A stretch of DNA of 11,222 bases from the NCBI RefSeq assembly GCF_006345805.1, contig NW_021827040.1, positions 1 through 11,222 on the forward strand, given 5' to 3'. Below are positions 1,703 to 9,077 of the stretch, piece after piece (position 1 is the stretch's first letter; each line of letters starts with the position of its first letter). Origin of the DNA: Octopus sinensis (Eukaryota). Made by a program: the position numbers and the translations under genes. The notes below the pieces were generated by a model. That model saw nothing but the letters and a program-made list of their open reading frames with translations, had not been told where the DNA came from and did no database searches.

Positions 1703-2006
1703 CTCGCATCGCATCACTGCACTAGGATAGAACTATTTCACTTCAACTGGTCCTGCTCTCTTGAAGATAATGCCAAGACACATAAGAGAAGAAGACGATC
1801 CCTTAATATTTAAACGGTTTCTGGGCGAATATCTCCCTCCAACAAATTCCAGATAAACCGCTAACACCCGGATATATTTCTTCAAACAATAACATTTTAT
1901 TCACATGGGCAATGGTACCCAACGTATGACTATAACACGTTAAGTGCCATTCTTCGGATGGTGCTGTTAAATTAGTCATAACCAGAACTAATTCTATCTA
2001 AATATC
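1703..2006 (+). mobile_element. Decayed 3' end of CR1-like LINE (ORF2 C-terminus plus 3' UTR)
   Basis: Translates, with a stop and a frameshift, as ..NYFTSTGPALLKIMPRHIREEDDPLIFKRFLGEYL/QQIPDKPLTPGYISSNNNILFTW, homologous to the copy at 2963-3340; 3' UTR motif ggatggtgctgttaa..cataacc. Confidence 0.8.
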
Positions 2007-2016
2007 TTTGTAGTCT

Positions 2017-2064
2017 CTGCTGCTGAAGAGGAGATAATCACTCCGAAATGCATGCATCCCATAG
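2017..2064 (+). ncRNA. Minimal type I hammerhead ribozyme, copy 1 (predicted cut after C2058)
   Basis: CUGAAGA (2023-2029), helix II GGAG/CUCC with 7-nt loop, GAAA (2045-2048), palindromic helix III AUGCAUGCAU (2048-2057), AUC triplet; helix I CUGCUG/CCAUAG keeps 4 of 6 pairs. Confidence 0.65.
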
Positions 2065-2364
2065 TCTGGTTAGGTGAGGCCGTGAGTTAACTCGGTGTAT
2101 TTATACCTATTTGTCTACAACGAGAATTTTTCTCCATGACAAACTTCACTGGATGACTTTCATTCGGATCTGAATGATACGTCAAGCGTATTTGAACTGG
2201 TAATATGTTTGTATTTCTACACATCACTGCTTAGCACCGTCAGCCCCCGCTTCTTATTTACAGCAAACAGTTGCATAAACACAACCAGTCACTGAATGAT
2301 GACGGGAATATCATAAGCTGGACCTGTGTCTCATGTCAGCTGGTAGTGTATGTCTTTCTGGTCT

Positions 2365-2412
2365 CTGTTGCTGAAGAGGAAATAACCACTCTGAAATGCA
2401 TGCATCTACAAG
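2365..2412 (+). ncRNA. Minimal type I hammerhead ribozyme, copy 2 (predicted cut after C2406)
   Basis: CUGAAGA (2371-2377), helix II GGAA/CUCU (3 of 4 pairs including G-U), GAAA (2393-2396), AUGCAUGCAU then C; helix I CUGUUG/UACAAG keeps 4 of 6 pairs. Confidence 0.55.
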
Positions 2413-2666
2413 TCTGGTTAGGGAATGCTGTGAACTGACTTGGACTATTTCCACTTATTTGTCTAAAGTAAGAAATGCTCTCCATTACAAAATACAATGA
2501 ATGGCTTCCTTACGGGTCCAAATAAGCCTCAAGCATATTTGAACTGGCAACAAGCTTGTATTTATACACATATCTGGGCATATTATATGAGCTGGAATTT
2601 ATCGTAGCTCTTAACATAATTTCTGAACTTCTGCATATATCTCCAATACTTTGGGCTGCGAGTTTC

Positions 2667-2928: not shown

Positions 2929-2962
<34 letters not shown>
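2929..2962. repeat. (TA)n microsatellite at the LINE 3' tail
   Basis: Direct reading. Confidence 0.9.
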
Positions 2963-2964
<2 letters not shown>

Positions 2965-3340
2965 TTTGATAGGTTTCGGCCATTATTGGCCCAGGCCATG
3001 TCTACTTAATAGCACCACCTGGTGAAGTCTTTCAGTCAGAATTTGGCACTATGGCCCACTCAAGTAGAGAGTATTGTTTACAGAGACATATCCGGGTGTA
3101 GGGGGTTTTCCGGGATTTCTTGAAGGAATCTGTCCAAAGACTTCTTGAACCCTATAGGGTCAGTTTCTGTTTTTTTAATGTGTTTTGGTGTAATGTTAAG
3201 AGAGCGGGGCCAATTGAGGTGAAATAATTGTGCCGTATTGTTGTTATGAGATGAGAGTGCGATTTTTGTTTTGGGCGGATGGCACGGGGCCCAAGCCTTG
3301 GTGTACCTTAAAGGTGATGCCAACATCATTTGGGCAATGT
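2963..3340 (-). mobile_element. 5'-truncated CR1-like LINE 3' end (frameshifted ORF2 C-terminus plus 3' UTR)
   Basis: Across frameshifts reads HCPNDVGITFKVH/RLGPRAIRPKQKSHSHLITTIRHNYFTSIGPAL/NITPKHIKKTETDPIGFKKSLDRFLQEIPENP/TPGY, matching the F..GP.LFN..P...FK..LD..L..IPD.P..PGY pattern of CR1-group ORF2 ends; tail ggtggtgctattaa..catggcctgggccaataatggccgaaac. Confidence 0.85.
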
Positions 3341-5062: not shown

Positions 5063-5109
5063 CAACTCGTCGACTTGCGAGTCAACAAGATGTCTACCGT
5101 TTTTACATA

Positions 5110-5476
5110 GGCGCTGGCGTGGCTGTTTGGTAAGAAGCTTGCTTCTTAACCACATGGTCCCAGGTTCAGTCCCTCTGCGTGGCCGACTAAAGCCTTGTGA
5201 GAGGATTTGGTATACGGAAACTGGAAGATGACCATCGTATATGTGTGTGTGTGCGCGAGCGCGAGTGTGTGAGCATTTGTCTCCCATCATCATTTGACAA
5301 CCGGTGTGGGTGTGATTACATCCCCGTAACTCTGCGGTTCGACAAAAGACACGATAGAATAAGTATCAGGTTTTAAGTGAAAAATGAGTACGAGTGTCTA
5401 TTCATTCGATTAAAACTTCTTCAAGATAGTGCCCCAGATTGGCCACAGTCTAGTGACCGAAACAATTAAAAAATGA
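5110..5476 (+). mobile_element. tRNA-derived SINE, family A, near full length
   Basis: A box tggctgtttgg (5120-5130), B box ggttcagtccc (5163-5173), internal (TG)n, tail ..gtgccccagattggccacagtctagtgaccgaaac; homologous to 6250-6605. Confidence 0.85.
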
Positions 5477-5496: not shown

Positions 5497-6068
5497 TAAT
5501 TCAATGGACTATCAAATTTAATAGACTATACTGTTCTTGTATTAATGTAGTAACGTTCTGAGTTCAAATTCCGCCGAGGTCGACTTTGCTTTTCATCCTT
5601 CCGGGGTCGATAAATTAAGTACCAGTTGCGTACTGGAGTCGATCAAATCGACTGGCCGCCTCCCCCAAAATTTTGGGCCTTGTGCCTAGAGTAGAAAATA
5701 ATATTAATGTAGAATATTTCTCTTGTATTTAATTTAATGCTGCACTTTCATTCAATTTGAATAAATCGTTCAGTTAAATTTAATGGACGATATTGATCCT
5801 CCATTAAATTTAATAAACTAGAGTTTTCCTCTGTTAAATTTAATGCGCATTTCAGTTCCTTCATTATGTTTAATGGAGAATATTTCTCTACTATTAAATT
5901 TAATTGACTATACTGTTCCCCTACTAAATTTAATGGAATCTATTGGGCCTGTTAAATTTTATGGACTATTTTATCAAATTTTATAGACTATCTTTCTCGT
6001 CTATTAATTTAATAGGTTATCCTGCTATTTTACTAAATTTAATGGCCAATACTACTACAATTTAATTA
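5497..6068 (+). repeat. Degenerate 30-bp minisatellite with palindromic ttaaatttaa core, interrupted by a SINE
   Basis: Core (or close variant) recurs at 5774, 5804, 5834, 5864, 5894, 5924, an exact 30-bp phase, with looser units on both sides; consensus approx. aaatttaatggactatactgttcctctatt. Confidence 0.85.
5551..5701 (+). mobile_element. 5'-truncated SINE family B with 11-bp target-site duplication
   Basis: acgttctgagttcaaattccgccgaggtcgactttgc...ggccttgtgcctagagtagaaa flanked by tattaatgtag at 5540-5550 and 5702-5712. Confidence 0.9.
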
Positions 6069-6200: not shown

Positions 6201-6249
6201 AATTGTCCTGGTGCCAAATTCTTCTTTGACTTGCGATAGACTAGTAAAT

Positions 6250-6605
6250 GTAAGAAGTTTGCTTCCTGGGTCCTGTCCCCTTGCGTGTCACCTTCTACTG
6301 TAGCCTAGGTCCAACCTTTGCCTTGTGAGTGGATTTGGTAGATGGAAATTGAAAGAAGCCCGTCGTGTATATTATATGTATATGTGTGTGTTTTTTTTGT
6401 GTGTGTGTATCTATGTGTGTGTCTTTGTATCTGTGTCTGTGCCCCACCCATCACCGCTTAACAACTGGTGTTGGTGTGTTTACGTCCCCGAACTTAACGG
6501 TTCGGCAAAAGAGACCTGGGATCGATTTGTTCGACTAAAACCCTTCAAGGCAGTGCTCCAGTATAGCTGTAGTCAAATGACTGAAACAAAACAATAAAAG
6601 AAAAA
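6250..6605 (+). mobile_element. tRNA-derived SINE, family A, with internal deletions
   Basis: gccttgtgagtggatttggtagatggaaattgaaagaagcccgtcgt...tacgtcccc..cggttcggcaaaagagacc...gtgctccag..gtcaaatgactgaaac aligns with 5110-5476. Confidence 0.85.
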
Positions 6606-8084: not shown

Positions 8085-8479
8085 CGCCGAGCTGGCAGAA
8101 TCGCTAGCACGCCGGGCGAAATGCTTAGCCGTATTTCGTCTGCCGTTACGTTCTGAGTTCAAATTCCGCCGAGGTCGACTTTGCTTTCATCCTTTCGAGG
8201 CCGATTAAGTACCAGTTACGCACTGAGGTCGATGTAATCGACTTAATCCGTCTGTTTGTCCTTGTTTGTCCCCTCTATGTTTAGCCCCTTGTGGGCAAGA
8301 AAGAAACAGGTATTTCGTCTGCCGCTACATTCTGAGTTCAAATTCCGCCGAGGTCGACTTTGCCTTTCATCCTTTCGAGGCCAATTAAGTACCAGTTACG
8401 CACTGGGGTCGATGTAATCGACTTAATACCTATGTCTGTCCTATGCTTAGCCCCTTGTGGGTAGTAAAGAAATAGGTAT
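8085..8479 (+). mobile_element. tRNA-derived SINE family B with tandemly duplicated body
   Basis: Head gagctggcagaatcgctagcacgccgggcgaaatgcttagc, then unit 1 (8131-8309, 179 bp) and unit 2 (8310-8475, 166 bp), both starting gtatttcgtctgccg and containing B-box-like gagttcaaattcc. Confidence 0.9.
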
Positions 8480-8575
8480 GAGATCAGGGTAAGGATCTGT
8501 CCATCTATCAATTCATCTATCTATATCTCTGTGTGTTAGGTTTGGTGTACAGATATTGAACATTGAAAAAAAAAG

Positions 8576-8745
8576 GTCGACAGAATTTTGGAAAAAAATA
8601 TTTTTATTTATTCATTATTAATAGCGCTTTCTTCCGTTTCTGAAACTTGTCAAATAGAATTCTATTTGACAAGTTTGAGAAACGGAAGAAAGCGCTAATA
8701 ATAATGAATAAATATAAAGGGTTTTTTTCCCAAAATTCTGTCGAC
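8576..8745. repeat. 170-bp near-perfect spacerless palindrome (foldback/MITE-like)
   Basis: Axis 8659/8660; perfect over 8643-8676; 3 mismatches across 8601-8718; outer arms gtcgacagaattttgg / ccaaaattctgtcgac. Confidence 0.95.
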
Positions 8746-8756
8746 GGTTTTTCTTA

Positions 8757-8797
8757 ATATGTATATTTGTATGTATGTTTGTATGTATGTATGTATG

Positions 8798-8917: not shown

Positions 8918-9077
8918 AACTTAGATAAACTTAGATATGTTTCGACCAGAGATTGGTCCAGGCCATGTGTAAATTAATAGCACCACCGGATAGGATTATT
9001 CGAATCCTGTTTAAGTCAAGTTTTGTTCAAGTAGTGAGTTCTTGTTGGGTGAGTTGTATCCAATTATGGGTGGCTTA
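8918..9077 (-). mobile_element. Short CR1-like LINE 3' end
   Basis: Minus strand encodes [21 protein letters not shown], then ggtggtgctattaatttacacatggcctggaccaatctctggtcgaaac and a (tatctaagtt)x2 tail; homologous to 2963-3100. Confidence 0.8.

Follow-up and report, generated by a model that had tools for sequence, protein, structure and literature searches.

A pair of type I hammerhead cores, spaced 348 bp, in what is probably an old and dead member of a non-LTR retrozyme family

Previous studies indicate that retrozymes form an established class with members in coral, mussel and amphibians (PMC7229834; bioRxiv 10.64898/2026.07.22.740005); about 5000 ribozymes are attributed to the mussel elements, and cleavage by retrozyme hammerheads is reported to proceed at 0.8/min in coral and 0.1/min in mussel (PMC7229834). 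A retrozyme cycle has been modelled (PMC7229834, PMC7761336, PMC6155905), and retrozymes have been linked to Penelope (bioRxiv 10.64898/2026.07.22.740005). Penelope-like elements (PLEs) have hammerheads of a minimal type, for which the published criteria are a helix II of 7-8 bp, an unpaired base separating position 9 from 10.1, and a palindromic 15.2-16.2 (PMC4209133).

The window, i.e., the whole stretch of 11,222 nucleotides analysed here, holds two complete type I hammerhead cores, at 2023-2058 and 2371-2406. Each core combines CUGAAGA (2023-2029 in copy 1 and 2371-2377 in copy 2) with GAA, a 10-nt palindrome and C (2045-2058 and 2393-2406, respectively). A complete core in each of two places 348 bp apart had been reported in the first-pass annotation of this DNA and is confirmed from the sequence; the spacing is exactly 348 bp and falls inside the retrozyme criterion of 150-450-bp head-to-tail units. 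We consider that the locus is probably an old copy, now dead, from a family of non-LTR retrozymes, made of ~1.6 units of a ~350 bp non-coding hammerhead repeat, with the following features.

About 2005..2571, plus strand: whole insertion, ~1.6 head-to-tail units, beginning immediately 5' of ribozyme 1, with unit 2 cut short at its 3' end (alignment, family depth)
2005..2074, plus strand: type I hammerhead copy 1 (sequence, descriptor, pairing analysis)
Helix I side of copy 1, plus strand: distal 5' strand 2005-2013, loop 2014-2016, helix I 2017-2022/2059-2064 (4/6 pairs)
Core and helix II of copy 1, plus strand: CUGAAGA 2023-2029, helix II 2030-2033/2041-2044 (4/4 pairs), GAA 2045-2047
Helix III and 3' side of copy 1, plus strand: helix III 2048-2050/2055-2057, C17 2058, U1.7 2065, distal 3' strand 2066-2074
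2058..2059, plus strand: predicted cleavage site 1, after AUC (from hammerhead numbering)
2075..2224, plus strand: unit body copy 1, non-coding (alignment, family coverage)
2225..2352, plus strand: spacer, present once in the window and belonging to the family unit (contig depth, loose ends)
2353..2422, plus strand: type I hammerhead copy 2, with the layout of copy 1 at +348 and U1.7 at 2413
2406..2407, plus strand: predicted cleavage site 2
2423..2571, plus strand: unit body copy 2, stopping at ~2571 (alignment, family contigs)
2002..2007, no strand: 6-bp direct repeat at the left border, weak candidate target-site duplication
2570..2575, no strand: 6-bp direct repeat at the right border, weak candidate target-site duplication

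The core and helix III are the same between the copies at 21/21 positions, in keeping with the first-pass description of a shared core with a palindromic helix III. Helix I has six positions, four of them paired in copy 1 and four in copy 2, and this earlier count is upheld by the pairing analysis. When the 5' strand of copy 2 is combined with the 3' strand of copy 1, the arrangement of the circle and of the inner site of a double hammerhead, helix I reaches 5/6 pairs, and for each of the six positions some cross-combination of the copies gives a pair. Helix II is complete in copy 1 (4/4 pairs) and damaged in copy 2 (3/4), where a G10.1-U11.1 wobble occupies the conserved first pair and the fourth pair is A x C. 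Helix III consists of 3 bp and a palindromic tetraloop. Beyond helix I lies an internal loop of 3 nt by 1 nt, followed by a distal helix, which in copy 1 pairs 2010-2013 with 2066-2069 and is extended by 2005-2007 with 2072-2074.

With a 6-bp helix I, an internal loop, a distal helix, a 4-bp helix II, a 3-bp helix III with a palindromic tetraloop and U1.7, the architecture is that of the canonical retrozyme type, as set against the minimal Penelope type. In the case of the Schistosoma Sm-alpha and amphibian satellite hammerheads, the 6-bp helix I, the 4-bp helix II and the short helix III with a palindromic loop are alike (PMC4209133), and so is internal loop 1. In the case of the minimal hammerheads of PLE pLTRs, the type I topology, the palindromic helix III region and the double-hammerhead potential are shared, but the motif here has a 4-bp helix II, no 9/10.1 bulge, a helix III that is present and a defined loop 1 (PMC4209133). 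The term 'minimal', used in the first-pass annotation, is therefore not borne out: the sizes of helices I and II are canonical, helix III is real, the bulge is missing and U1.7 is there. Nor is the obligate dimer that it had assumed, since hammerheads of canonical-type invertebrate retrozymes are reported to cleave as monomers (PMC7761336).

The single base on the 3' side of the internal loop, U1.7, is unpaired and loop 2 ends in A, and both are kept in 2/2 copies. They correspond to the partners of the Hoogsteen contact proposed for full hammerheads in a study whose own enzyme could dispense with U1.7 (PMC11875169). The mussel motifs, as described in PMC7229834, are without most conserved tertiary nucleotides, whereas U1.7 and the final loop 2 A are retained in the motif here. 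The cleavage triplet is AUC and N7 is A, unlike in the canonical Schistosoma and amphibian hammerheads; the S. douthitti motif shares the AUC triplet (PMC1636495). AUC is described as rare among natural hammerheads, with mispairing with CUGAU as the proposed reason, and type I topology is described as escaping this mispairing (PMC1636495). CUGAA in place of CUGAU would weaken the trap.

A strict descriptor with helix-pairing checks recovered just these two sites on both strands of the window, and at least one site in 10/1000 dinucleotide shuffles. A looser pattern without pairing checks stayed within chance, with at least two matches in 28/200 shuffles. The covariance models of the Rfam hammerhead families (Hammerhead_1, HH9 and HH10), proposed as a check in the first-pass annotation, gave no match up to E 10, either in the window or in 1900-2750. 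The Rfam result and the chance level of the loose pattern would suit a plain satellite or dispersed repeat in which the resemblance to a hammerhead is a coincidence or the motif never worked in the family, and so would the variants, with no compensatory changes or covariation among the 40 of 385 variant rows listed. However, strict sites are rare in the shuffles, the core and its three helices occur together with the distal helix, with U1.7 and with the palindrome, and the majority letters of the family repair pairs (below), which makes such a reading very improbable.

The two copies align at 2002-2224 versus 2350-2571, with 172/221 identical positions (78%; JC 0.26) and an alignment score of 182, against a shuffle maximum of 29. 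Between the copies, the ribozyme region is identical at 55/65 positions and the body at 110/153, a marginal difference (Fisher p 0.057). A second well-kept block of the unit lies at 2180-2228 versus 2527-2575 (40/49 identical), and family depth at 2536-2567 is as high as in the ribozyme; the block could be a promoter or RT-recognition site. The spacer (~2225-2350) occurs once in the window, and spacer-like sequence is absent from the upstream flank and after 2577 (local alignment scores 14 and 19). Because the spacer is single and the flanks are unlike it, the window contains ~1.6 units. Two 348-bp units had been proposed; the spacing stands, but in place of two full units there are ~1.6 units that are 78% alike. 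Similarly, of the proposed span 2005..2597, the start at ~2005 holds and the end has to be moved to near 2571. Target-site duplications of retrozymes, where present, should exceed 4 bp; as to the 6-bp repeat at the borders, chance alone would give one shared 6-mer over the ranges compared, and there is no empty site among the contigs.

The locus resembles the metazoan non-LTR retrozymes of PMC7229834 in having a type I hammerhead per unit, many copies, no ORF, a GC content below 50% (0.41-0.42 in the unit here) and a more-than-unit insertion. The units of Mytilus galloprovincialis measure 350-390 bp (PMC7229834), compared with 348 bp here. Unlike these retrozymes, the copy here is decayed and has 1.6 units, its circle is not predicted to be unusually self-paired, and the host is likely a cephalopod. 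Li et al. 2026 define their elements by a TRF tandem of at least two units with complete ribozymes (bioRxiv 10.64898/2026.07.22.740005). This locus falls outside that definition, as TRF, with parameters different from theirs, reported no 348-bp array in the window. Long tandem arrays were seen in none of the contigs, which cannot show them.

No RT or GIY-YIG ORF had been noticed nearby in the first-pass annotation, and a scan of 14 of the 71 listed ORFs likewise gave no such match; the 348 bp between the ribozymes contain neither. The unit's one long plus-strand frame (67 codons, 2235-2435) was considered as a remnant of a Penelope endonuclease and rejected. It has no Pfam match above the cut-off and no homologue among three candidates, and its five phmmer hits are summed weak matches in unrelated repeat proteins, the best domain reaching at most 10.3 bits. 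The unit is non-coding. The ribozymes of Penelope pLTRs are ~3 kb apart (PMC4209133), as against 348 bp without an ORF here.

We surveyed the family on 1800-2750 at an identity threshold of 80%, in contigs of three DNA runs (X2, X7 and X13) and of a fourth run, X23, guessed to be RNA; of the small-share runs, X13 was the one covered. The numbers of contigs were 2799, 1785, 2366 and 159, respectively, with those on a SINE end and on a LINE-like end counted in. The single-copy flanks are uncovered in X23, and no inference on expression is drawn from it. Most family contigs are less than 95% alike to the window, mostly 80-95%, and at position 2038 one shared alternative letter occurs in 111, 90 and 103 contigs of the three DNA runs. 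The summed depth at 2024-2055 is 27,234 (X2), 2,133 (X7) and 8,988 (X13), and the depth of single-copy flank bins is 42-47, 5.5-6.3 and 15-32, respectively; summed contig depth is not a copy number and serves as a rough sign only. The family probably comprises hundreds of old, diverged copies. Its core pattern had no match in metagenome, viral and prokaryote contigs. A signature of A-to-I editing was also considered and rejected, there being no excess of A>G (31 places) and T>C (38) over C>T (56) and G>A (48) in X2.

Family depth is found in the bins 1992-2599 and single-copy depth at 1928-1991 and 2600-2695, and the family sequence departs from that of the window before 2012 and after 2571. 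A link between the unit and the LINE-like end at 1800-1930 was rejected, as depth drops to single copy in between. In the left flank, one X2 contig has an 11-bp insertion at 1993, likely an allele.

The contigs also reveal how the parts of the unit are joined in other copies. Among the 24 of 1333 loose ends listed, those behind 2571 (49, 26 and 41 contigs) lead into spacer-like sequence and start like 2225, with the first 11 letters the same by eye. The loose end before 2012 (22 contigs) matches 2330-2359 at 22/30 letters, versus 11/30 for the real flank, again by eye. One joint leads from 2339 to 2013 through 21 letters, exactly as many as the 348 register requires, and another, from 2571 to 2304, crosses the spacer with 37 letters, in a variant ~42 bp shorter (two contigs in X2 and one in X7). 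From these listed loose ends and joints, the transitions from ribozyme to body, from body to spacer and from spacer to ribozyme all exist in other copies, where they close an ORF-free unit of ~350 bp. Spacer depth in X2 is ~2,000-2,300 at 2280-2343 and low at 2248-2279, versus ~45 in the flanks. Since spacer depth is several-fold below that of the ribozyme and body, and no contig listed covers the entire stretch between two ribozymes of a paralogous unit, some family members may extend into longer elements.

These joints bear on a second reading, in which the repeat is the pLTR of an autonomous Penelope-like element, the locus a partial tandem of truncated ends and the family mostly truncation debris. 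The hammerheads of PLE pLTRs are of type I, in some cases with a helix III that is small and palindromic (PMC4209133), and the family is like them in its partial tandems and some inverted joints: three of the 15 joints listed, out of 395, change strand, and inverted truncated copies are described as typical of PLEs (bioRxiv 10.1101/2021.04.23.441226). The same reading would accommodate an X23 contig with an inverted helix II fragment beside 2345, a second type of upstream sequence before 2023 (31 contigs, X13), and the loose ends behind 2235, with medians of 205-255 letters. However, the motif is without the minimal-PLE traits (7-8 bp helix II, 9/10.1 bulge, short helix I, no helix III), the family joints close a unit without an ORF, and an RT/endonuclease remnant is absent from the unit's one long plus-strand frame; we therefore judge truncation debris to be rather unlikely. 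The two readings are close, because Xenopus retrozymes are reported as relatives of pLTRs (bioRxiv 10.64898/2026.07.22.740005), and the sole difference between them is whether the unit amplified on its own.

Returning to the retrozyme family, five of the 40 variant rows listed, out of 385, fall in the ribozymes: three are pair-restoring majority changes, two are in loops and none is in the core. The pair-restoring majority letters are C at 2407 (~60% of depth), G at 2381 (70-80%) and C at 2353 (65-86%). The 5' side in the family is CCAG, a full match to CUGG, and CCAG is also kept in a second subfamily, the one with the different sequence upstream of 2023. One X23 loose end (three contigs, agreement 0.62) is the full complement of the helix I 5' strand of copy 2, and the repair of the middle helix I pairs depends on this single loose end; the distal helix is complete in the family. 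Other copies thus repair broken pairs, which supports the earlier suggestion that the two copies are decayed members of a multicopy, non-coding hammerhead family.

For intact members, a mechanism can be proposed in which every step is carried over from the retrozymes of coral, mussel and axolotl. Transcription of tandem units would yield a multimeric RNA, which would fold a canonical hammerhead in each unit, either as a monomer or as a double hammerhead through the 10-bp palindrome, and would cleave itself after AUC. A host ligase would then close the monomer into a circle, and a Penelope-like RT/endonuclease would copy the circle for more than one round and insert a more-than-unit cDNA. The ~1.6-unit insertion at this locus has the shape of such a cDNA. 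By analogy, Penelope-like elements likely mobilise the family, a link drawn from the Penelope-retrozyme literature (bioRxiv 10.64898/2026.07.22.740005), from the inversion of truncated copies that is typical in PLEs (bioRxiv 10.1101/2021.04.23.441226) and from the few opposite-strand joints here. It is unlikely, though worth stating, that the family is a living octopus retrozyme family with several subfamilies, ribozyme-cut circular RNAs and Penelope insertion with inversions, in which adjacent units were already different when inserted. If so, the differences between the units, with the core kept and the body 28% diverged, would be a record of selection acting on the ribozyme as RNA and of switches of template from one circle to another, and the family would offer a mollusc system for testing how retrozymes are linked to Penelope, along with the still unexplained heterogeneity of their circles.

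At the locus itself, RNA folding gives helix I pair probabilities of 0.00 in all arrangements, and the 10-bp inter-copy palindrome forms with a probability of 0.6-1.0 in the two-unit RNA. At 37 C the active fold lies above the MFE by 11.1 kcal/mol in copy 1, 14.2 in copy 2, 17.4 at the inner site and 25.7 in the double hammerhead, energies that leave out tertiary contacts, and the stability of the circle 2059-2406 does not exceed that of 150 shuffles (z +0.4). On account of helix I at 4/6 pairs, the helix II damage in copy 2, a fold cost of 11-26 kcal/mol and a circle equal to shuffles, the locus is predicted to be inactive and no longer to fold an active ribozyme. The release of a 348-nt monomer by cuts after 2058 and 2406, as foreseen in the first-pass annotation, is unlikely at this locus according to the folding, and its failure in the fold tests sets the locus apart from active retrozyme copies.

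An active or co-opted locus, with a transcript that adopts the double-hammerhead fold and is cleaved after 2058 and/or 2406, would be in line with the 21/21 identity of core and helix III beside a body that is 72% identical (p ~0.001 if neutral, post hoc), with the inter-copy palindrome and the 5/6 pairs of the inner site, and with the retention of the insertion in organism E. We nevertheless hold it to be highly improbable: the helix I probabilities and the energies of the active folds speak against it, identical runs of 12-14 nt exist outside the core too (2189-2200), the locus was picked for its intact cores, and 8/9 genomic Xenopus dimers tested are reported to have failed to cleave (bioRxiv 10.64898/2026.07.22.740005).

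Contigs of organism E cross both borders, at 1840-2125 with 17 differences and at 2482-2749 with 20, so that the insertion predates the ~6-7% species split. Assuming an Octopus host and units that were the same when inserted, the dead copy would be ~35 million years old, taking half of JC 0.26 on the calibration given in PMC13282606.

The family is likely a new member of the established retrozyme class. In the literature we found no hammerhead or retrozyme family of cephalopods or the octopus, and the supplement of PMC7229834 may already list cephalopods. The 2026 repeat annotation of Octopus vulgaris reports a genus with 190 annotated Penelope-like families, and the word 'ribozyme' is absent from its text and supplement (PMC13282606). 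If the host is an octopus, the range of hammerhead retrozymes would extend to cephalopods. A proposed mechanism is also given to a repeat family of probably hundreds of copies. As the class is established, in the mussel too, and the copy here is a fossil, what is gained is taxonomic and annotational, unless there are young members that are expressed.

Overall, the window is DNA of animal type, rich in microsatellites and carrying fragments that are SINE- and LINE-like. Three related fragments lie at 1800-1930 (plus strand), 2960-3340 (minus strand) and 8935-9050 (minus strand), with pairwise local scores of 50 and 62; their broken frames read like what we take to be the C-terminal end of a CR1-group LINE ORF. 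These LINE-like fragments have no Pfam match, and none of 18 candidates scored in the protein search with the frame 3081-3335; 1832-1895 is multicopy in the contigs. At 60-420 there is non-simple sequence with an 11/22-bp tandem at 304-360, which may be the end of another retroelement and in which the strict descriptor found no hammerhead motif. The tRNA search of the window found no tRNA. A near-perfect hairpin at 8564-8757, with arms of ~97 bp, is likely a foldback or MITE-like element, and its Rfam miRNA matches stay below the gathering score. A 30-bp minisatellite occupies 5774-5969 (6.6 copies, 64% matches). A very abundant SINE-like repeat is found at 5555-5705, 8145-8305 and 8310-8480 on the plus strand and at 2696-2790 on the minus strand (scores 46-200); the copies at 8145-8480 stand in tandem, the depth at 2696-2750 exceeds 400,000 in X2, and the repeat is presumably an Octopus SINE. 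A longer, second SINE-like repeat is represented by two diverged copies, at 5105-5460 and 6240-6605, with a score of 76.
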